Assembly: GCF_000025685.1 (NCBI RefSeq)
Contig: NC_013967.1
Location: 360,001 to 392,000 of the forward strand
Source: Haloferax volcanii DS2
GTDB lineage: Archaea; Halobacteriota; Halobacteria; Halobacteriales; Haloferacaceae
Reading direction: 5' to 3'
DNA length: 32,000 bases
Each line of letters opens with the position of its first letter. Positions within the stretch are counted from its first letter, which is position 1. The translations under genes and the position numbers were made by a program. Under the pieces are notes generated by a model. It had not been told where the DNA came from and ran no database searches. It saw only the letters and a program-made list of their open reading frames with translations. Of the stretch, positions 8,086-15,918 are shown one piece after another.

Positions 8086-9234
8086 CTACCAGCGACTCGG
8101 GTCGAGACCGGTCGGCGCGCCGCCGAGCAGCCGCGGGCCGTCGTCACCGACGACCAACACGTCGGTCAGTTCGACTCGCCCGTGGTCCGCGTGCGTGACC
8201 GCGGCGCGGACGCGCAGGACGTTGCCGGCGACGAGTTCTCTGTCGCCGTCGAGCGGCGGGTCCTCCCGGGCCGCGAGGCCGATGCCGCCGCCCACGTCTC
8301 TCGTCACCTCGTCGGCCATCGAGAAGCCGAACGCGGCGGTCTCCGCCCGGAGTTCGCTCCCGAGGAAGCCGGCGTCGTCGCCGGGGTCGGCCTCGGCCAG
8401 ACTGACTTTTCTGGCGGCGTCGCAGGCGACGTGCGCCCGGCGCTCCCACCCGCCGTCGGGGTCGACGACGAACGTGCGAGCCAGCGCGCCGCGGTAGCCG
8501 GTCGGTCCGCGCGGGCCGACCGAGACGACGATGGGTTCGCCCGGTCGGAGTTCGACCGGCTCGCCCCCGCCCCCGTCGCCTCGGGGTCCCGCGCGAACCG
8601 TCGTCGCGCCCGCGGCATCGACGCCCTCGGCCGCGAGCGTCGCGTTCACCTGCCGGCGGAGTCGCTCGGTCGACAGCGGTGCGCCGTCCCAGTGGAGGAC
8701 GGACTGTTCGTCGTCGCCGTTGTCGTCGCCGTCGTCAGCTTCCTCGACCGTCGCCGCCGACAGTATCGCGGCGGCGCGCCCGACGCCGCGAGTCGCCGCG
8801 CGCTGAGCGGCCTCGATGGCGTCGCGCTCGGCGTCGTCTTTCACGGCGCGGGCGGCTTCGACCGCCGGGGTCGACGCGAGGTCGTAGCCCGCCGATTCGA
8901 GGTGGAGCGCGGCGTCGTGCGGAACCGTCCGCGGCGCGAGGACGGTCCCGTCGGAAGCGCCGTGTTCCGCGAGGACGGCCGCGGCGGCCGTCCCCGGCGG
9001 CCTGTCGTCGACGCGGACCGAGGCGACCGGGAGCGACGGCGGTTCGACGGTCGAGGGGACTCGGAGATGCGTCTCGCCGTCAACGCGGACGAACACGAGG
9101 TCGCAGTCGAACTCGCGGCCGGTGAGGTAGCGACTCGTCGGGTCGGCACCGCGGGAGACGGCGACGAAGCCGACGGCGTCTCGCTCGGACACGGCGGCGT
9201 CGATGGCGTCGCCGCCGCGCGGACTCCACCGCAC
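8086..9234 (-). CDS. M24-fold (creatinase/prolidase-like) protein, probably catalytically degenerate, 382 aa
   Basis: Pita-bread C-terminal domain pattern (GYRGALARTFVV, GGGIGLAAREDPPL, GRVELTDVLVV). GTG start at 9234 lies 6 nt after the helicase stop. By-eye alignment suggests 4 of 5 M24 metal ligands are substituted. Confidence 0.65.
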   Translation of the reverse strand: MRWSPRGGDAIDAAVSERDAVGFVAVSRGADPTSRYLTGREFDCDLVFVRVDGETHLRVPSTVEPPSLPVASVRVDDRPPGTAAAAVLAEHGASDGTVLAPRTVPHDAALHLESAGYDLASTPAVEAARAVKDDAERDAIEAAQRAATRGVGRAAAILSAATVEEADDGDDNGDDEQSVLHWDGAPLSTERLRRQVNATLAAEGVDAAGATTVRAGPRGDGGGGEPVELRPGEPIVVSVGPRGPTGYRGALARTFVVDPDGGWERRAHVACDAARKVSLAEADPGDDAGFLGSELRAETAAFGFSMADEVTRDVGGGIGLAAREDPPLDGDRELVAGNVLRVRAAVTHADHGRVELTDVLVVGDDGPRLLGGAPTGLDPSRW

Positions 9235-9240
9235 GGGACG

Positions 9241-11091
9241 TTACGCCTCTGGTTCGGGCGCGGGCAGTTCCTGCGCGTCGTCGACGAGTCCCTGCGCGGG
9301 TTCCTCGCGAATCTCGTTGTGGAGCAGGACGCTGATGGGGAGCGTCGGCGCGCCGGTGACGAGGTTTTCGAGGACGATGAGGCGCTCGCGGGCGCGGGAC
9401 ATCCCGACGTAGAAGACGCGGCGCTCGTTGTCGGTGATGAGCGGGACGGGGCTCGTCGTCGCGGTGAACTCCTCGATGCCGCGGGCTTCGAGCTCCTCGT
9501 CGGAGACGGACGCCGCCATCTGCTCGACCACCTTCTCGGTCAGGTCGGTCGCCATGAACACGTGGTCGGCCTCGCGACCCTTCGCGGAGTGGATGGTGCC
9601 GACGCGGACGCGACTGGGGTCCATCTCCTCGTAGCCGCCGCCGAAGTACGCGTTAACGGACTTGCGCTGGAAGCTCGTCACCTTGCGGACCATGTCGCTC
9701 GCGGACGAACTGTCGGGGGCGAACGGTGCGAAGTTCTTGATTTCCTTCGGCGTGAACTCGATGTTCGTGATGTCGTCGACGCCGACTTCCTCCTGTCTGT
9801 CGTCGATGGCGTCGAAGAGGTCGTCGCGGTCGTTCGTGCCGAACGCGGAGTCCTGGAGCATGTCCGCGAGGCGACGGGCCTCCAGCCCGTTGACGGGCTC
9901 TTCGGCGTCGAGCGCCTCGACCGCGCGGACGTACTGCGTGAGCCGGTCGGTCCACATGCGCTGGTCGGTCAGCGTCGAGAAGGGGATGCCCGACGGGAGG
10001 AACTCGTCGATGAACTGGAACATCTGGTAGCGCGCGCGGAACAGCACCATCACGGTGCCCTCGTCTTTCTCGACGGTGTAGCGGACGTTCCGGGCGAGTT
10101 CGAGCATCGACGGACTCTCGACGGCCTCGACCGCGCCGCCTTCCTTGCGCGGCTTGAGGTCCTTCTCCTGTCGCTTGTCGATGTGGCGAATCTCTCGGTT
10201 GACGACGTTGAGGACGTTCGACGGGAGGCGGTAGGAGTTCGGCAGAATCTCGTCGTTGTCGCGTTCGGCGTCGAGGAGGAGGTTCGGGTCCGCGCCCTGC
10301 CACGCGTAGACGACCTGGTCGTCGTCGCCGGCGATGAGGACGCCCCGCATGTGGGGCTTCCACTCCTCGTACACGTCGTACTGGAGGGTCGTGATGTCCT
10401 GGAACTCGTCGATGACGAGGTAGTCGACGTTGGGGACGAGCGCGCGCTGCTTGACGCGTTCGAGCATGTCAGCGAATCCGACCAGCCCGTGTTCGCCCTT
10501 GTAGGCGCGCCACGCGCGGATGGCCTCGGGGATGTCGATGCGGTCGTCGTCGGACGGCCACGTCGGCGTGTACTTGTTCCCTTCCTGCGCGTTCGGGTCG
10601 ACTTCCGGCGGGAGGCGGACCTCCTCGACGTTCCACTGGAACGGCACGTCGTACCAGTCGGACACGTCGCGGCGGGTGCGCTGGAGCCACTGGCTCGTGG
10701 CGATGACCTTGTTCCCGATGGTGGTCGAGCGGGCGGTCCGACGGCCCGCGCCGCCGTACTCGTCTTCGAACTCGACGCCGTAGTCCTCGCAGAACTCCTG
10801 TTTGTCGCTCTCGCCGACCACGTCGTTCCGCGAGAGGCTCAAGAGTTCGTACGCCTTCGCGTGCATCGTCGAGACGTTCCCCTTCAGCGACCGGGGGTTG
10901 ATGTCGAGTCGCTCAGCGAGTCGGTCGCGGACCTCGGCCGCCGCGGCTCGGGTGTAAGAGACAACGAGAATGTCGCGGATGGTGACGCCGTCTTGTTCGA
11001 GAATCTCCTCGACCTTGTCGAGCAAGGCCGTGGTCTTCCCGCTTCCCGGGCCGCCGAACAGCCGGGTGACGGTCACGTCGGATTCGCTCAT
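9241..11091 (-). CDS. uvrD: UvrD/REP-family superfamily-1 ATP-dependent DNA helicase, 616 aa
   Basis: Walker A FGGPGSGKTT at the N-terminus, VVSYTRAAAAEVRDRL (motif Ia), LVIDEFQD (Walker B/DEXQ), GTIHSAKGREADHV and FYVGMSRARERL (motifs V/VI). Confidence 0.8.
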   Translation of the reverse strand: MSESDVTVTRLFGGPGSGKTTALLDKVEEILEQDGVTIRDILVVSYTRAAAAEVRDRLAERLDINPRSLKGNVSTMHAKAYELLSLSRNDVVGESDKQEFCEDYGVEFEDEYGGAGRRTARSTTIGNKVIATSQWLQRTRRDVSDWYDVPFQWNVEEVRLPPEVDPNAQEGNKYTPTWPSDDDRIDIPEAIRAWRAYKGEHGLVGFADMLERVKQRALVPNVDYLVIDEFQDITTLQYDVYEEWKPHMRGVLIAGDDDQVVYAWQGADPNLLLDAERDNDEILPNSYRLPSNVLNVVNREIRHIDKRQEKDLKPRKEGGAVEAVESPSMLELARNVRYTVEKDEGTVMVLFRARYQMFQFIDEFLPSGIPFSTLTDQRMWTDRLTQYVRAVEALDAEEPVNGLEARRLADMLQDSAFGTNDRDDLFDAIDDRQEEVGVDDITNIEFTPKEIKNFAPFAPDSSSASDMVRKVTSFQRKSVNAYFGGGYEEMDPSRVRVGTIHSAKGREADHVFMATDLTEKVVEQMAASVSDEELEARGIEEFTATTSPVPLITDNERRVFYVGMSRARERLIVLENLVTGAPTLPISVLLHNEIREEPAQGLVDDAQELPAPEPEA

Positions 11092-11107
11092 TGTGCACGT
11101 TCACGGC

Positions 11108-11122
11108 CTTATCGGTGATAAG
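11108..11122 (-). promoter_or_regulatory. perfect 6-3-6 palindrome cttatc-ggt-gataag at the helicase promoter/TATA position
   Basis: Lies 17-31 nt upstream of the uvrD-like ATG (11091), where the TATA box of a leaderless transcript is expected. Confidence 0.4.
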
Positions 11123-11517: not shown

Positions 11518-13026
11518 TTACAGGTCGTACAGCGCGCCGTATTTCGACTCGACGTAGTCGAGGAAGTCGTCGGCGGCGAACGCTTCGCCGGTGGCTCGCT
11601 TCACGAGGTCGTTCGTCTCGTAGCGCCGACCGTGGCGGTGGACGTTCTCCCGGAGCCACTCCCGGAGGTCGCCGAACTCGCCGTCGGCCAGTTTCCCGTC
11701 GAGGTCGTCGATGTCCTCCTCGGCGGCCGAAAACAGTTGGGCGGCCATGATGGAGCCGAGCGAGTAGGTCGGGAAGTAGCCGAAGTTCCCGTACGCCCAG
11801 TGGATGTCCTGCAGACAGCCCTCGGAATCGGTGTCCGGCCGGATGCCGAGGTACTCCTCGTACTTGTCGTTCCACGCCTCCGGCACGTCCTCGACGGCGA
11901 GGTCGCCGGCGATGAGTTCGCGTTCGAGTTCGAACCGGATGACGATGTGCAGGTGGTAGGTCAGTTCGTCCGCCTCGACGCGGATGAGGTTGTCGTCGTA
12001 CACCTGATTGGCGGCCTCGTAGGCCTCTTCGACCGTCGCGTCGACCTCCGGGAACCGGTCTTCGAGCGTGGGCAGGAAGTGCCGCCAGAAGGCCCGCGAG
12101 CGCCCGACGTGGTTCTCCCAGAGCCGCGACTGCGACTCGTGGACTGAGAGGTTGCGGTTCTCACCGAGCGGCGTCGCGTAGTGTTCGTCCGGCAGGCCGA
12201 GCGTGTACAGCGCGTGGCCGAACTCGTGGACGGTCGAGAACAGCGACCCGAGCACGTCGGACTCGTCGTAGCGGGTCGTCACGCGGGCGTCGAACTGCGT
12301 CCCCGACGAGAACGGGTGCGGGGCGGTGTCGAGGCGGCCGCGCTCCCACGGGTAGCCGAGCGTCGAGAGCGCGTCGCGGACGAGCGTCTCCTGGTCTTCC
12401 TCGGGGAACTCGCCCTCGAAGGCGTCCACCGCGAGGTCGACGTCGGACTCGCGGATGTCCTCTATCATCGGGACGAGCACCTCGCGCACCTCGGCGAGAA
12501 TCTCCTCGGCCTGTTCGAGGGGCAGACACGGCTCGTAGTCCTCGAACAGCACCTCGTAGGGGTCGCGGTCGGGGTCGATGTGCTCGGCGTACTGCCGCTT
12601 CAGTTCGACGTGCTTCTCCAGATGCGGCGCGAACGTCTCGAAGTCGTCTTCGGCCTTCGCCTGCTTCCACGCCGGGATGGCCTCCGAGGACGCCGCGGAA
12701 ATCTTCTCGACGAGGTCGTTCGGCACGCGGGCCGCCCGCTCGTAGTCGCGGCGGAGTTCGCGCAGCACGTCGGCCTGCTCGTCGGTCGGGTCGTCGGCCT
12801 CGGCCGAGTCGAGGAGTTCTCCGAACTCGTCGTCGGTCAGGAGTTCGTGGCTCAGCGCCGACAGCGCCGACATCTGCTGGGAGCGCGCGGGCGTCCCCTC
12901 GTCGGGCATCATGACCTGCTGGTCCCACGAGAGGATGCCGCCGGCGTTCTCGACGTTGGCGATTCGCTTGTACTTCTGGAGAAGCTGGTCGTACGGCGAT
13001 GCGTCTTCGGTGGGGGATTGTGCCAT
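11518..13026 (-). CDS. M32 family (Taq-type) metallocarboxypeptidase, 502 aa
   Basis: HEFGHALY (HExxH), HESQSRLWEN, IRVEADELTYHLH and DIHW motifs are typical of carboxypeptidase Taq/M32. Confidence 0.9.
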   Translation of the reverse strand: MAQSPTEDASPYDQLLQKYKRIANVENAGGILSWDQQVMMPDEGTPARSQQMSALSALSHELLTDDEFGELLDSAEADDPTDEQADVLRELRRDYERAARVPNDLVEKISAASSEAIPAWKQAKAEDDFETFAPHLEKHVELKRQYAEHIDPDRDPYEVLFEDYEPCLPLEQAEEILAEVREVLVPMIEDIRESDVDLAVDAFEGEFPEEDQETLVRDALSTLGYPWERGRLDTAPHPFSSGTQFDARVTTRYDESDVLGSLFSTVHEFGHALYTLGLPDEHYATPLGENRNLSVHESQSRLWENHVGRSRAFWRHFLPTLEDRFPEVDATVEEAYEAANQVYDDNLIRVEADELTYHLHIVIRFELERELIAGDLAVEDVPEAWNDKYEEYLGIRPDTDSEGCLQDIHWAYGNFGYFPTYSLGSIMAAQLFSAAEEDIDDLDGKLADGEFGDLREWLRENVHRHGRRYETNDLVKRATGEAFAADDFLDYVESKYGALYDL

Positions 13027-13052
13027 ATGATATCAGGTCGGTCCGGAACCGT

Positions 13053-13060
13053 AATAAAAT
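13053..13060 (-). promoter_or_regulatory. TATA box of the carboxypeptidase gene
   Basis: The minus strand reads ttttatta, 27-34 nt upstream of the ATG at 13026. Confidence 0.45.
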
Positions 13061-13220
13061 GAAGGAGATGCGAATTATAGTCCGTTGTTGTTCATTCGGG
13101 TGCTATCAGATGTGAAACCTCAAACCCATGGTGAATAGATAGTATGCCGACTTCGTTCAATCGACAGTGTCGGTTGTTGGGCTTGCTTATTCACCGTGTC
13201 GCGAGGTGAGTAACTAGACC

Positions 13221-14717
13221 TCACTGTTCGCCAACAATTTCCTCATTATGATACCGTAATAACTCGGTCGAAATATGGTGGTCTGAGTCCACGGCTAACT
13301 GTCTATCAGAGAGTGCTGAAGTGTGGGTATGTTCCAATTCAAGCGATTCTGGAGAGACACTTACGACACCATTGTCGAAGTCCGTGTGATGGTTTGGACA
13401 CAAGACTAGCATGTTTGATCTTTTGTCTGGTCCACTATGTGGCTCACCGAGAGGGACGATATGGTGAACTTCTGAGTACCGAGTACCGTCGTTCCGAAGT
13501 AACGTGGTTCCACACACCTGGCACTTATCGTCGTAGAGACGTTTCAACTCGTTGACTACCTCGCGATCGCGTCGTACTCTGTCGAGGACCGTCTGGTATC
13601 TTCCTATGTCTTCGTACAGTTCCGGTTCAACCTGTACTGGGTCGAAGTCTTCTCGTGGGAATGGGTCGGTACGTTGCCTCGTTTTGGTGTCTTCGTCTCT
13701 ATTCTCTTGCAGCAGGAGCTCGTCGCTCCAGATTTCTTCGAAGTAGGAAGGGTTGTACTCTCGTTTTCGGAAGGGCCCTCCCGTTCGGTCGCCAACGTAT
13801 AGGCAGTCACAGAGCAACTTGTAGAACCCTGTCTTCGTCGTGTGTACGTCCTCCTCGAACCGTGGGAGAATCGATTCGAGCATCAGTTCAGAGTGCTGTC
13901 TGAGGACGATAGAGTGCGGCAACAGTGTCTCGATAATCTTCCTCACATTTTGATGGGCAGTGAAATAGACCTGAAAATCGTGCCGCGTCGAGGAATTACC
14001 GTAGTCAATGCCTGTCGATTCACAATAGTCTAGTGCATAGTCGACGAGTTGTTTACTCACCCCTGTCAGATGCATTCGTGCAATTGGGTACATCGTGTAC
14101 CCAATTCGAACTTCGTCCGTTTGCGCGATGCTCGCACGGTAGCGGCAAATTCCATCAAACAAGCCAGCAAACCACTTTTCTGAATACCCAGATCGGCATC
14201 GTCCATCTGGCAGAGGAAGCGAGTCCACTCTCGACGGACGGACGTCGTACTCGTCGCTGAAGTCCTGCGGTGTGGTGTGATTCCGGCCTCTCGGACGCCA
14301 TCCATGCCGGAGTTCGTCACGCGTGATGAGCAGTTGATAGACGTCTTCGGCTGTCAACAATTGCCCACCGAACTGGTTGTCAGACAGGCTGGTCACGAAC
14401 GCTAATTCGTTGGCTAACTGCGCAGAGTGCCCGGCGAGATACTCATCAAGTTGTTGCAACTCACTATGCTGGTCAAGCAGAAAATACGATATCGAGTAGT
14501 CACCGTCGACAAATCGAGTGCTGTCGTACGATTGGCTGTCGAGAAACATACCCAGTACGTCACGGCGTGCTGTCGACTCGTAGGTCCGAATTCGGAGCGA
14601 AGGACGGACGGTGAATTTGTTGTCGGGCTGGGAGTGGATATTGAATTGTACCCTCCCAGTGGCGTCTAAGAGCCCAGCGACGTACTCCGGAGAAAGGACC
14701 TCTTCGGTTTCATTCAT
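13221..14717 (-). CDS. tandem LAGLIDADG-like domains fused to a C-terminal HNH (CCCH zinc) nuclease, 498 aa
   Basis: Motif 1 is YVAGLLDATG (aa 12-21) and motif 2 is WFAGLFDGIC (aa 182-191). HNH core: C399QVC402 ... EVH418H419IVP ... N435MLVLC440PNH443H444TDFDNG. A/T-rich codon third positions. Acidic composition, roughly 84 D+E against 53 K+R by hand count. Confidence 0.75.
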   Translation of the reverse strand: MNETEEVLSPEYVAGLLDATGRVQFNIHSQPDNKFTVRPSLRIRTYESTARRDVLGMFLDSQSYDSTRFVDGDYSISYFLLDQHSELQQLDEYLAGHSAQLANELAFVTSLSDNQFGGQLLTAEDVYQLLITRDELRHGWRPRGRNHTTPQDFSDEYDVRPSRVDSLPLPDGRCRSGYSEKWFAGLFDGICRYRASIAQTDEVRIGYTMYPIARMHLTGVSKQLVDYALDYCESTGIDYGNSSTRHDFQVYFTAHQNVRKIIETLLPHSIVLRQHSELMLESILPRFEEDVHTTKTGFYKLLCDCLYVGDRTGGPFRKREYNPSYFEEIWSDELLLQENRDEDTKTRQRTDPFPREDFDPVQVEPELYEDIGRYQTVLDRVRRDREVVNELKRLYDDKCQVCGTTLLRNDGTRYSEVHHIVPLGEPHSGPDKRSNMLVLCPNHHTDFDNGVVSVSPESLELEHTHTSALSDRQLAVDSDHHISTELLRYHNEEIVGEQ

Positions 14718-14738
14718 TTACCAGACGGTGACAGTATG

Positions 14739-14746
14739 ATTAAATG
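14739..14746 (-). promoter_or_regulatory. TATA box of the LAGLIDADG-HNH gene (leaderless spacing)
   Basis: The minus strand reads catttaat, 22-29 nt upstream of the ATG at 14717. Confidence 0.45.
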
Positions 14747-14823
14747 ATAGTTGTGGTTGAACGTCTCTGTTGACATCCTTGGAGTCGCCGCCACCGGCTA
14801 CTTACCTCTCCCCAGGCCCGAAA

Positions 14824-15918
14824 TCACCAATTTGCCACGAGCGCGCGGTACGTCTCGTAACACCGCGCCAGCACGTCGAGCGACACGCTCTCGTCTTTCG
14901 TGTGCGCCTCGCCCGGCTCCGAGGGGCCGTAGACGACGCAGGTCGTCCCGGCCTGCGCCAGCCATCCGGCGTCGGTCGCGTGGGGCTTCGTCGTCTGCTC
15001 CGGCTCCGCGTCGCTGCGGGCCTCGTGAACCGACCGGGCGGCGTCGAGGACGCGCTCGGCGAAGTCGGCGTCGTCGCACGCCATCGGCGGGAGGTCCTGT
15101 TCGACGACCCACTCGACGCCCTCGAGTTCCGCCGTCCGCGCGAGGTCAGCAAAGCCGCCGGGGACGGTCCGCTCGTCGAGAGTCACCTCGCAGCGGTCGG
15201 GGATGACGTTCCACGCGCTCCCGCCGTCGATTTCGGTGACGGCGATGCTCCCCGAGACGGGGTGGTCGAGGACCTCGGCGTCCGGCACGGAGAGACCGCG
15301 AACCACGTCCACGGCGTCGGTCGCGCGGTAGACGGCGTTCTCGCCGCGCTCGGGTCCGCTGGCGTGGCAGGCGGTCCCAGACGCGACGAGGGTGCTCGCC
15401 CGGCGGCCCCGGTGGGCGACGGCCACGTCCGTCCGGTTCGGTCCCGAGTAGTTCGTCGAGCCCTCGGCGACGACGGCGTAGTCGAGTTCGAAGCCGTCGT
15501 CGAGGGCGGCGCGGACGCCCTCCCCGCCGATTTCCTCGCCGACGAACGAGGCGAAGGCGACCTCCGAGTCGGCGTCGGCGGCCGCGTCGCGGAAGGCGAG
15601 CATCGACGCCGCGACGGCACCTTTCATGTCCGCGGCCCCGCGGCCGTAGAGGCGGCCGTCGCGGGTCTCGACCACGTAGTCGCCGCTGTCCGTGGTCTGC
15701 CGGTCGGCCGGCGGGACCACGTCGTGGTGGCCGACGAGCGCGAGCGACTCGCCGACGCCGGGGTTGACGCGGGCGACGACGTTCCCCGCGTCGTCTCTGG
15801 CCACGTCGGCGTCGGTCTCCTCGCGGAGCCACGCTTCGATGGCGTCGCCGGCGGCGGTCTCGTCCTCGTGGCTCGGCACCGACACGAGCGTCTCCGTGAG
15901 GTCGCGGAGTTCGTCCAT
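14824..15918 (-). CDS. M20 family metallopeptidase (ArgE/DapE-type deacylase), 364 aa
   Basis: [12 protein letters not shown] and GRGAADMKG motifs. Dimerisation-domain insert. C-terminal [11 protein letters not shown]. Confidence 0.85.

Follow-up and report, generated by a model that had tools for sequence, protein, structure and literature searches.

What does a lone low-GC gene with the features of two nuclease families do between two peptidase genes of a haloarchaeon? HVO_0418 (ADE03339.1) lies on the main chromosome of Haloferax volcanii DS2, where it occupies positions 13221–14717, minus strand, of the 32,000-nucleotide stretch analysed here (positions 360,001 to 392,000 of contig NC_013967.1; hereafter the window, whose numbering is used throughout). 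Its 498-residue product carries the source names "HNH endonuclease" and "homing endonuclease domain protein" and is assigned to COG3440. An earlier note, made from the DNA sequence alone, had described the protein as two LAGLIDADG-like modules, an acidic linker and a CCCH-zinc HNH core, and hence as two normally alternative nuclease families in one chain. We find the three parts, but not the two nucleases. The note had missed that the catalytic Asp or Glu is absent from both LAGLIDADG motifs in all 25 full-length members of the family. With a LAGLIDADG part that is best read as dead and an HNH domain that is intact, HVO_0418 would not be two nucleases in one protein; it would be a dead reader tethered to a restriction-type cutter. 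The role that we favour for it, tentatively, is that of a single-chain, modular, site-directed DNase acting as a stand-alone, restriction-like innate-immunity nuclease encoded by a single-gene islet.

The LAGLIDADG Region Is Best Read as a Non-Cutting Saddle

We modelled HVO_0418 with AlphaFold2 on a 27-sequence family alignment (mean predicted local distance difference test score, pLDDT, 84). The score exceeds 90 across most of residues 10–330, and the secondary structure of this region is that of the LAGLIDADG fold. When the model was compared with the PDB using Foldseek, the top 50 matches were all monomeric or single-chain LAGLIDADG meganucleases, among them mMsoI, I-OnuI, I-LtrI, I-SmaMI and I-PanMI, aligned over ~320 columns with E-values down to 2e-13 and target-normalised template-modelling scores of 0.58–0.70. 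The two modules that the earlier note had placed at residues 12–21 and 182–191 are thus real, the model, the structure search and the profile alignment agreeing on them, and the model shows residues ~8–335 as a monomeric, pseudo-dimeric tandem LAGLIDADG saddle. Domain 1 comprises residues 8–170 (14208–14696, minus strand), with the motif YVAGLLDATG at 14655–14684, and domain 2 comprises residues 171–335 (13713–14207, minus strand), with the motif WFAGLFDGIC at 14145–14174. The Pfam models LAGLIDADG_1, LAGLIDADG_2, LAGLIDADG_3 and WhiA give no match to the protein at E-values up to 1; the sole LAGLIDADG signals from sequence models are those of the PADLOC HEase model (5e-5) and of I-CreI (0.008–1).

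Could the saddle cut DNA? HMMER places residues 12–96 of HVO_0418 on I-CreI residues 12–95 so that Thr20 falls on the catalytic Asp20, and a MAFFT alignment with I-CreI places it there as well. Aligned with the I-LtrI motifs ItGFADGESSF and vAGFTAGEGSF, the family profile (iaGlfDglcryR) puts a hydrophobic residue on the catalytic Glu29 and Glu184; in domain 2 of HVO_0418 the residue at this position is Ile190. Among the 25 full-length members, over which all residue counts given here were taken, position 20 is Thr, Ile or Val and position 190 is Leu, Arg, Ala, Ile, Trp or Val, with Asp or Glu at either position in none. As a control, the distant relatives of the scaffold (~200–260 residues) keep GxxDGEG, DAEG or DGDG, whereas the closer relatives do not; because Asp or Glu was found in 60 motifs of these distant relatives, the motif finder is not biased. 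Since the catalytic acid is absent from both motifs in 25 of 25 members, the most plausible reading of the LAGLIDADG part is that of a dead nuclease serving, like that of WhiA, as a DNA-binding scaffold, with the HNH domain as the sole credible catalyst of the protein.

Several features of the saddle fit a role in DNA binding. The β1–β2 hairpins have net charges of +4 and +2 in a protein whose overall net charge is −31, and they are conserved to the level of the HNH core (top-residue frequency 0.69–0.83, compared with 0.76). Residues Arg22, Arg24, Thr36, Arg38, Arg42, Arg192, Arg194, Ser196, Tyr207 and Arg214 are each kept in at least 84% of members, and interleaved with them are the more variable positions 26, 28–30, 34, 40, 44, 199, 208, 210, 216 and 218. 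The saddle is accordingly predicted to retain what looks like a DNA-binding surface. An argument that this surface is fully conserved, that the family therefore has one common target, and that homing is thereby excluded was considered and withdrawn: the Arg/Thr core is invariant, and the peripheral DNA-facing positions vary. Subfamilies of HVO_0418 could differ in target.

A Restriction-Type HNH Domain Follows a Disordered Linker

The linker (residues 336–379; 13581–13712, minus strand) is acidic, as the earlier note had said, but shorter: ~43 residues, with a net charge of −6, rather than ~100. It is disordered in the model (pLDDT below 50), and it is the least conserved segment of the family alignment.

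The remainder of the protein, residues 380–498 (13224–13580, minus strand), is an HNH domain of the ββα-Me type with a C-terminal extension. The HNH core described in the earlier note is borne out by Pfam HNH_2 (PF13391), which matches with 41.2 bits against a cut-off of 21, and by PF01844, with 25.4 bits against 21.4. The best solved relative is TagI, an SRA-HNH Type IV enzyme, with E-values of 3.7e-17 for the single sequence and 2.8e-24 for the family profile over residues 375/377–494/496, and EcoKMcrA is second. The nearest NCBIfam model is that of the phosphorothioate-dependent SBD-HNH family, matched below its cut-off, and PADLOC reports mREase_IV at 2.9e-6. In the TagI alignment, His419 is equivalent to the general base His229, Asn435 to Asn245, and His444 and Asp448 to the metal ligands His254 and Asp258. 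Asn435 and Asp448 are invariant in the family, His444 is present in 24 of 25 members, and His419 is present in 22 of 25, the other three having Tyr. Asn449, the equivalent of the TagI dimer-interface residue Asn259, is also invariant, as are all four zinc ligands, Cys399, Cys402, Cys440 and His443; the CxxH variant of the zinc site was called equivalent in the TagI study (PMC6212794). By alignment, then, residues 380–498 are shown to be an HNH domain of the TagI/McrA class in which no catalytic residue or CCCH-zinc ligand is missing, and by sequence class the domain is of the restriction type (TagI/ScoMcrA/EcoKMcrA), not of the homing type.

In TagI and in other modular Type IV enzymes, dimers form through the nuclease domains, with the reader domains apart (PMC6212794). 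Haloarchaeal proteins with other N-termini are 46–54% identical to HVO_0418 over the HNH cassette, and two of them show weak, below-cut-off SRA-like matches. Since the same cassette follows different N-termini, it appears to have been combined with different heads. Searches with Pfam, NCBIfam and PADLOC found no SRA, EVE/PUA, SBD/wH, NEco or DUF3427 sensor domain in HVO_0418.

Recent Replacement at the M20/M32 Site in Haloferax

How did HVO_0418 come to lie where it does? GC content in 300-nt windows is 0.45–0.56 over positions ~13000–14800 and 0.60–0.75 on both sides, and at 1-kb resolution this islet is the sole low-GC stretch of the window. It extends from 13027 to 14823 (~1.8 kb), and HVO_0418 is its sole gene. 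The low GC content and unusual third codon positions that the earlier note had remarked upon are both evident, GC at third codon positions (GC3) being 0.57 in HVO_0418 compared with 0.92 in the M32 gene, 0.93 in the M20 gene and 0.92 in a UvrD-like helicase gene. Pfam profile searches likewise agree with the note on the flanking genes, which encode Peptidase_M32 (11518–13026; E 6e-172) and Peptidase_M20 (14824–15918; E 5e-30). As the note had also stated, the window offers no intron or intein context for HVO_0418 and no methyltransferase, integrase or toxin-antitoxin partner. The islet is not bordered by any terminal direct or inverted repeats of note, and no tRNA genes were found in the window.

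Empty sites, which we recovered through members of the M32 cluster, bear on the age of the islet. Clean examples are found in H. gibbonsii (L175), in H. lucentense DSM 14919 (L179) and in another assembly labelled H. volcanii (L177), where the M20 stop codon is followed by a spacer of 328–350 bp with a GC content of 0.68–0.70 and then by the M32 ATG. Identity of the window to L177 and L179 is 98.1–98.2% on the M20 side (5.7 kb) and 96.9% on the M32 side (6.4 kb), and homology with these empty alleles ends exactly at 14824 and 13026. Because a GC-rich spacer occupies the site in all three genomes, the islet is a recent replacement, foreign and recently acquired, in keeping with the acquisition that the earlier note had claimed. 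Orthologues with host-like GC, which the note had held would speak against acquisition, do not occur at this position in Haloferax; a GC-ameliorated stable resident does occur at another site, in Haloplanus.

The same gene is present at the same site in H. chudinovii (98% amino acid identity), and the carriers share more than the islet itself. The last 12 nt of the M20 gene and the first ~36 nt of the M32 gene are common to DS2 and H. chudinovii and different in all of the empty genomes. Two segments of coding sequence thus travel with the islet: the last four M20 codons plus the stop codon (GTGGCAAATTGGTGA; 14824–14838, minus strand), and the first 12 M32 codons (12991–13026, minus strand), which carry a 6-nt deletion and substitutions. 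Owing to this deletion, M32 is 502 residues long in DS2, H. chudinovii, Atlit-47N and BAB-2207, compared with 504 in the empty species. In addition, the DS2 M20 gene matches H. lucentense exactly in its 5′ part, but over its 3′ ~250 nt it resembles H. chudinovii and H. gibbonsii more closely than H. lucentense. Synonymous divergence (dS) between DS2 and H. chudinovii is 0.060 in the islet gene, 0.144 in M32 and 0.165 in M20 (Fisher p = 2e-7 on raw differences, islet gene versus flanks), and the ratio of nonsynonymous to synonymous divergence (dN/dS) is 0.17 for HVO_0418 and 0.15–0.19 for the flanks. Together, the shared ends of the flanking genes and this pattern of divergence indicate that recombination brought the islet in, the crossovers falling within the ends of M20 and M32, and that HVO_0418 is under purifying selection. 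The identity of the islet to H. chudinovii, 97.9% compared with 94–95% in the flanks, was also considered as proof of homing and was rejected as such, since other parts of the window reach 97–99%.

The replacement also altered the promoters at the site. The ancestral spacer is wholly lost in DS2, including the M32 promoter block that is conserved across Haloferax (CCTGCGrTTTAATAC...). In its place, the islet DNA between the HVO_0418 stop codon and the M32 start (13027–13220, minus strand) contains the TATA-like sequence TTTTATTA at 13052–13059, from which M32 is presumably now expressed in DS2. On the other side of the gene, the upstream region of the islet (14718–14823, minus strand), which extends to the break in homology with the empty alleles at 14824, contains a TATA-like TTTAAT on the minus strand at 14739–14744, 21 nt before the HVO_0418 ATG; the spacing is compatible with a putative leaderless haloarchaeal promoter. 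The 199-nt 3′ spacer of the islet shows no unusual folding (z −0.26), and Rfam gave no match in the islet or in the empty spacer.

The empty spacer holds a conserved, GC-rich, imperfect hairpin of ~130 nt (L179 5730–5870; also in L177 and L175) with a minimum free energy of −83.7 kcal/mol (z −2.76). The hairpin occurs as a single copy in the loci compared, has no Rfam match and was deleted in DS2 through the islet replacement; terminator, small RNA and recombination hot spot are all conceivable functions.

HVO_0418 is not the only cargo found at this position. In H. larsenii, H. elongans, strain S1W and strain DFSO60 the same M20/M32 spacer contains unrelated low-GC DNA, which makes it a general insertion hot spot. 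In distant Haloferax species, among the matches listed, the M20/M32 spacers are unalignable with the window. The insert in Haloferax sp. DFSO60 is 3.6 kb long, with a GC content of 0.49 and two genes of 361 and 618 codons (L010 2449–5391). The fillers in H. larsenii, H. elongans and S1W measure 425–534 bp (L007 5467–6000, L008 2588–3070 and L009 5576–6000), and those of H. larsenii and H. elongans appear to encode a small hydrophobic membrane protein.

A Sporadic Haloarchaeal Family

A word-indexed search of 5.8 billion proteins returned ~27 full-length homologues of HVO_0418, with 38–53% identity. Most are metagenome sequences, and every homologue with a named organism is haloarchaeal. No relative turned up when viral contigs were scanned with the family alignment, and a structure search of BFVD returned ordinary LAGLIDADG or HNH proteins alone, the full architecture being absent.

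The homologues occupy ~9 genomic contexts, across which there is no conserved partner gene and no recurrent methyltransferase. In DS2 and H. chudinovii the neighbours are housekeeping genes. In Haloplanus salilacus the gene lies between Lhr and a mevalonate-kinase operon, an arrangement repeated in one metagenome contig, whereas the H. marisrubri copy is in a region resembling a mobile element and the Halobacterium salinarum copy is beside ParA on a 38-kb plasmid. Other contexts include defence-type genes. On three contigs (L092, L094 and L096) the gene stands between a gene for a 1116-residue PD-(D/E)XK protein and McrB/McrC, and farther downstream on the longest of them, L092, an HSDR_N protein and a DUF1156 methyltransferase are encoded. 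On L170 the gene follows that for a 1568-residue ResIII/Helicase_C/HNH_repeat protein, and on L099 it is near a ResIII helicase and another HNH_2 protein. The latter (L099 16396–17382) is a second, unrelated HNH_2 protein of 328 residues, encoded 7 kb away, with the ResIII helicase and a DUF2250 protein between. Two further contexts are short, uninformative contigs.

Is the gene a passing visitor in these genomes? The Haloplanus pair is 70% identical, compared with mostly 78–90% for the flanking genes, and its GC3 of 0.82–0.83 is near the host value. Similarly, the copies in the McrBC island are ~80% identical, compared with 76–88% for their neighbours. Judged by these comparisons, the homologue is a stable resident in both the Haloplanus and the McrBC-island lineages. 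Some copies are decaying, as indicated by the three members with Tyr in place of the general-base His, by a frameshift that splits a metagenome copy into 269 and 168 residues (L097 4142–5622), and by the copy at the M20/M32 site of Haloferax sp. BAB-2207, which is reduced to fragments of 246 and 98 residues (P0223 and P0224).

Relatives of the Scaffold

When 1.8 billion representative proteins were searched with residues 1–335, 166 relatives were found. The closer group, in which the catalytic acid is absent, consists of tandem-only proteins of 330–346 residues, HNH fusions and single-domain halovirus proteins. The last of these, ~160 residues long and assigned to PHROG 12980, occur in 51 records of tailed haloviruses of the Hafunaviridae and are the closest viral relatives of the scaffold; they are annotated "LAGLIDADG endonuclease" or "HNH endonuclease". 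In the two copies that were read, HCTV-8 gp76 (L087 2525–3010) and the identical P0108, the motif is YIAGVVDSLGR, without the catalytic Asp or Glu. The PHROG 12980 proteins are probably DNA-binding proteins and not LAGLIDADG nucleases.

The tandem-only proteins of 330 residues, which are ~24% identical to the N-terminus of HVO_0418 and have neither an HNH domain nor catalytic acids, are encoded at the end of a conserved four-gene operon on plasmids of Halococcus dombrowskii (NZ_CP095007.1; L088 380–4954) and Halobaculum rubrum (NZ_CP082285.1; L089 302–4885). The other genes encode a PbeC/DndD-type ATPase (PADLOC PbeC, E 1e-228), a protein of ~145 residues and a protein of ~390 residues, and none of the three smaller operon proteins matches a PADLOC model. 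Two DNA methyltransferases adjoin the operon, as does a DEAD-box helicase in H. rubrum. The PbeC class has been described previously (PMC10853773), and this operon may be an undescribed Pbe-like defence variant. Two further fusions were found: P0081 (651 residues) joins the dead tandem scaffold to a C-terminus of ~300 residues with a weak TFIIB-repeat match, and P0080 (489 residues, 26% identity) is a second, distant fusion to an HNH_2 domain without the zinc cysteines. On the sequences, the dead LAGLIDADG scaffold appears to have been reused with several partner domains.

Discussion

How might a protein built in this way act? We propose that the non-cutting saddle is a DNA reader for a long site, its target being either an ordinary long sequence or a DNA feature marked by modification or structure. 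The flexible acidic tether would give a loosely fixed cutting distance from the bound site or sites, and two protomers would pair through their HNH domains, as in TagI by homology, to make a double-strand break near the bound site. Such an enzyme would serve as a stand-alone, restriction-like nuclease whose gene is exchanged among Haloferax lineages when the neighbouring M20 and M32 genes recombine. We favour the restriction role because of the restriction class of the HNH domain, the swapped heads, the defence-island neighbours, the relatives in Pbe-type operons and the stable maintenance of the gene in two lineages.

A number of observations weigh against this proposal and account for our caution. 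Binding of DNA by the saddle is predicted from its sequence, and the WhiA saddle may no longer bind DNA; the loss of LAGLIDADG activity is likewise inferred from the canonical residues alone. A fixed long-site reader would also be a weak antiviral design, since point mutations in the site allow escape, and no methyltransferase is present to protect self DNA. Clear defence islands are seen in only ~3 of ~9 independent contexts, whereas in Haloferax there are homing-like signs, namely presence/absence polymorphism at one site and a dS below that of the flanks. The Tyr at the general-base position in 3 of 25 members and the two degraded copies indicate that not all copies are maintained. Finally, no member was found on the viral contigs scanned, and no PADLOC system model covers the protein.

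Those homing-like signs have an explanation of their own: HVO_0418 could be a free-standing homing endonuclease whose dead saddle recognises the empty M20–M32 allele, whose HNH domain cuts it, and whose islet is copied in during repair after fusion of Haloferax cells, destroying the target. We consider this unlikely, but it is the main competing explanation and a serious one, because homing would leave exactly the population footprint seen in Haloferax and because a nuclease whose target has been destroyed has no need of a methyltransferase to spare self DNA. Genomes with 97–98% identical flanks differ in having or lacking the islet at one precise site, with the whole spacer replaced; the variant M20 and M32 ends common to DS2 and H. 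chudinovii look like short co-conversion tracts, and the ~250 nt at the 3′ end of the DS2 M20 gene look donor-like. The dS of the islet (0.060, against 0.144 and 0.165), its low GC content, the constant site in each subfamily and the degraded copies, which suit a cycle of homing and decay, are all as homing would have them. Moreover, experiments have shown the homing of an intein in Haloferax, and a further free-standing LAGLIDADG gene has been proposed in the genus (PMC5867893). Yet in Haloplanus and the McrBC island the gene is no more conserved than its flanks, has host-like GC and an intact reading frame, and so has the marks of long vertical residence. The M20/M32 spacer is a general hot spot, with unrelated low-GC cargo in four other Haloferax lineages, and the identity pattern of the islet is inside the mosaic range of the rest of the window; ordinary recombination between homologous flanks, followed by selection, would leave the same footprint. 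The HNH domain, furthermore, belongs to the COG3440/TagI restriction class, outside the homing HNH classes.

The class of the HNH domain suggests another possibility, that HVO_0418 is a modification-dependent Type IV restriction enzyme in which the LAGLIDADG saddle stands in for SRA, EVE, SBD or wH as the sensor of base or backbone modifications, for instance phosphorothioate DNA or methylated or hypermodified viral DNA. Such an enzyme requires no methyltransferase partner, and the closest solved or profiled HNH relatives, namely TagI, EcoKMcrA and the phosphorothioate-dependent SBD-HNH enzymes, are in line with it, the mREase_IV match pointing in the same direction. Two haloarchaeal proteins with the same cassette have the weak, below-cut-off SRA-like matches mentioned above, one subfamily adjoins McrBC, LAGLIDADG-only relatives are found in PbeC/DndD-type neighbourhoods, and the invariance of the central DNA-facing residues would suit a common chemical ligand. 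We nevertheless regard this possibility as improbable: recognition of DNA modifications is not known for any LAGLIDADG fold, and a saddle of 335 residues is far above the size of known modification sensors and typical of the reading of ~20 bp of sequence. A still smaller chance attaches to a domesticated DNA-binding factor with little or no role in conflict, whether a regulator or an initiator of repair or recombination like WhiA or HO. The dead scaffold resembles that of WhiA (PMC3384342), the same scaffold precedes a TFIIB-like C-terminus in P0081, and the Haloplanus gene is a stable, GC-ameliorated resident. However, the catalytic HNH set is invariant or nearly so and the gene is under purifying selection; the distribution is sporadic and strain-variable, with close relatives lacking the gene and any replacement for it; and copies are found on plasmids and in variable regions.

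The relatives of the scaffold invite a broader and more speculative view, to which we give little credence at present. Haloarchaea and their viruses would share an unrecognised clade of dead LAGLIDADG readers that serve as interchangeable long-site targeting modules, in single-domain form in the Hafunaviridae, in tandem-only form in PbeC/DndD-type operons, as a TFIIB-like fusion and in at least two independent HNH_2 fusions. HVO_0418 would then be a host-captured reader, re-armed with an HNH domain, that cleaves a specific foreign sequence without a methyltransferase, the target being, for example, one that is also bound by a viral homologue. If this view is correct, HVO_0418 is a natural immunity gene, in the style of a programmable meganuclease, in a tractable archaeon.

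What known systems does the protein that we propose, a dead reader tethered to an HNH cutter, most resemble? It shares its fold over ~320 columns with the monomeric LAGLIDADG homing endonucleases (I-OnuI, I-LtrI, I-SmaMI and single-chain I-MsoI/I-CreI). In contrast to them, it lacks both catalytic Asp/Glu residues throughout the family, is only 11–15% identical, has no Pfam LAGLIDADG match, carries an extra nuclease domain and is associated with neither an intron nor an intein. With the NTP-independent Type IV enzymes TagI/ScoA3IV (SRA-HNH) and EcoKMcrA it shares the HNH domain and C-terminal extension, the catalytic residues, the zinc site (CxxC...CxxH/D) and the interface Asn, as well as the layout of N-terminal reader, disordered linker and C-terminal HNH; its reader, however, is a 335-residue LAGLIDADG saddle and not an SRA, NEco, SBD, EVE or wH sensor. 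WhiA (DUF199) is similar in having a tandem LAGLIDADG scaffold without the metal-binding acids, joined to an unrelated C-terminal DNA-interacting domain, and loss of the same acids abolishes nuclease activity there (PMC3384342). Unlike WhiA, HVO_0418 ends in an active-looking nuclease rather than a helix-turn-helix domain, has no WhiA Pfam match, is haloarchaeal and sporadic where WhiA is universal, and keeps the positive charge of its saddle.

Free-standing homing genes, such as the seg and mob genes of phage T4 and the LAGLIDADG_2 gene of Haloferax glycosylation islands (PMC5867893), are likewise solo nuclease genes between conserved genes, with presence/absence polymorphism and co-transferred flanking tracts. 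HVO_0418 differs from them in its restriction-class catalyst, its dead LAGLIDADG part, and its vertical retention and defence-island locations in some lineages, and the Haloferax gene reported earlier is a different one, of the PF03161 type (PMC5867893). From Type II or IIS-like restriction-modification systems it differs in having no cognate methyltransferase adjoining it. Surveys of haloarchaeal restriction-modification systems list HNH endonuclease groups as uncharacterised candidates alone (PMC6471742).

By analogy, the closest functional counterparts of HVO_0418 are the engineered chimeras built on inactivated endonucleases. In the design of megaTev (I-TevI with I-OnuI), of inactive I-SceI with MutH, and of inactive BamHI with the HNH nicking domain of phage Gamma, the inactive body of a highly specific endonuclease directs a separate, tethered nuclease domain (PMC3627573, PMC8845596), and HVO_0418 shares this principle. 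Those chimeras are man-made, whereas the HVO_0418 family is natural, with ~27 haloarchaeal members and a second, distant lineage (P0080). Both domains of HVO_0418 come from well-known superfamilies; their natural combination is apparently undescribed, no natural LAGLIDADG-HNH fusion and no mention of HVO_0418 being found anywhere in the searchable literature, which agrees with the suggestion in the earlier note that the architecture belongs to no described family.

If our proposal is correct, HVO_0418 is a natural case of the engineered-chimera design, in which the inactivated body of a high-specificity endonuclease guides a separate cutter. Evolution would have reached the engineers' solution, and the protein would offer a new high-salt scaffold for long-site targeting. 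It would also extend the modular reader-linker-HNH logic of the Type IV enzymes to a reader of a wholly different kind. Furthermore, the analysis exposes a clade of dead LAGLIDADG proteins in haloviruses and haloarchaea that now bear the annotation "LAGLIDADG endonuclease" or "HNH endonuclease" and that are probably not LAGLIDADG nucleases. Because HVO_0418 belongs to a tractable model archaeon with natural empty-site strains and existing tools for deletion, mating and virus challenge, homing and defence can be directly tested against each other.

Other Features of the Window

One further reading frame of unusual length is present in the window. A 978-codon ORF on the plus strand (8182–11118), rich in Arg, Gly and Val, runs antisense to the UvrD-like helicase gene (9241–11091, minus strand); it is the usual spurious long ORF of high-GC DNA and not a gene.

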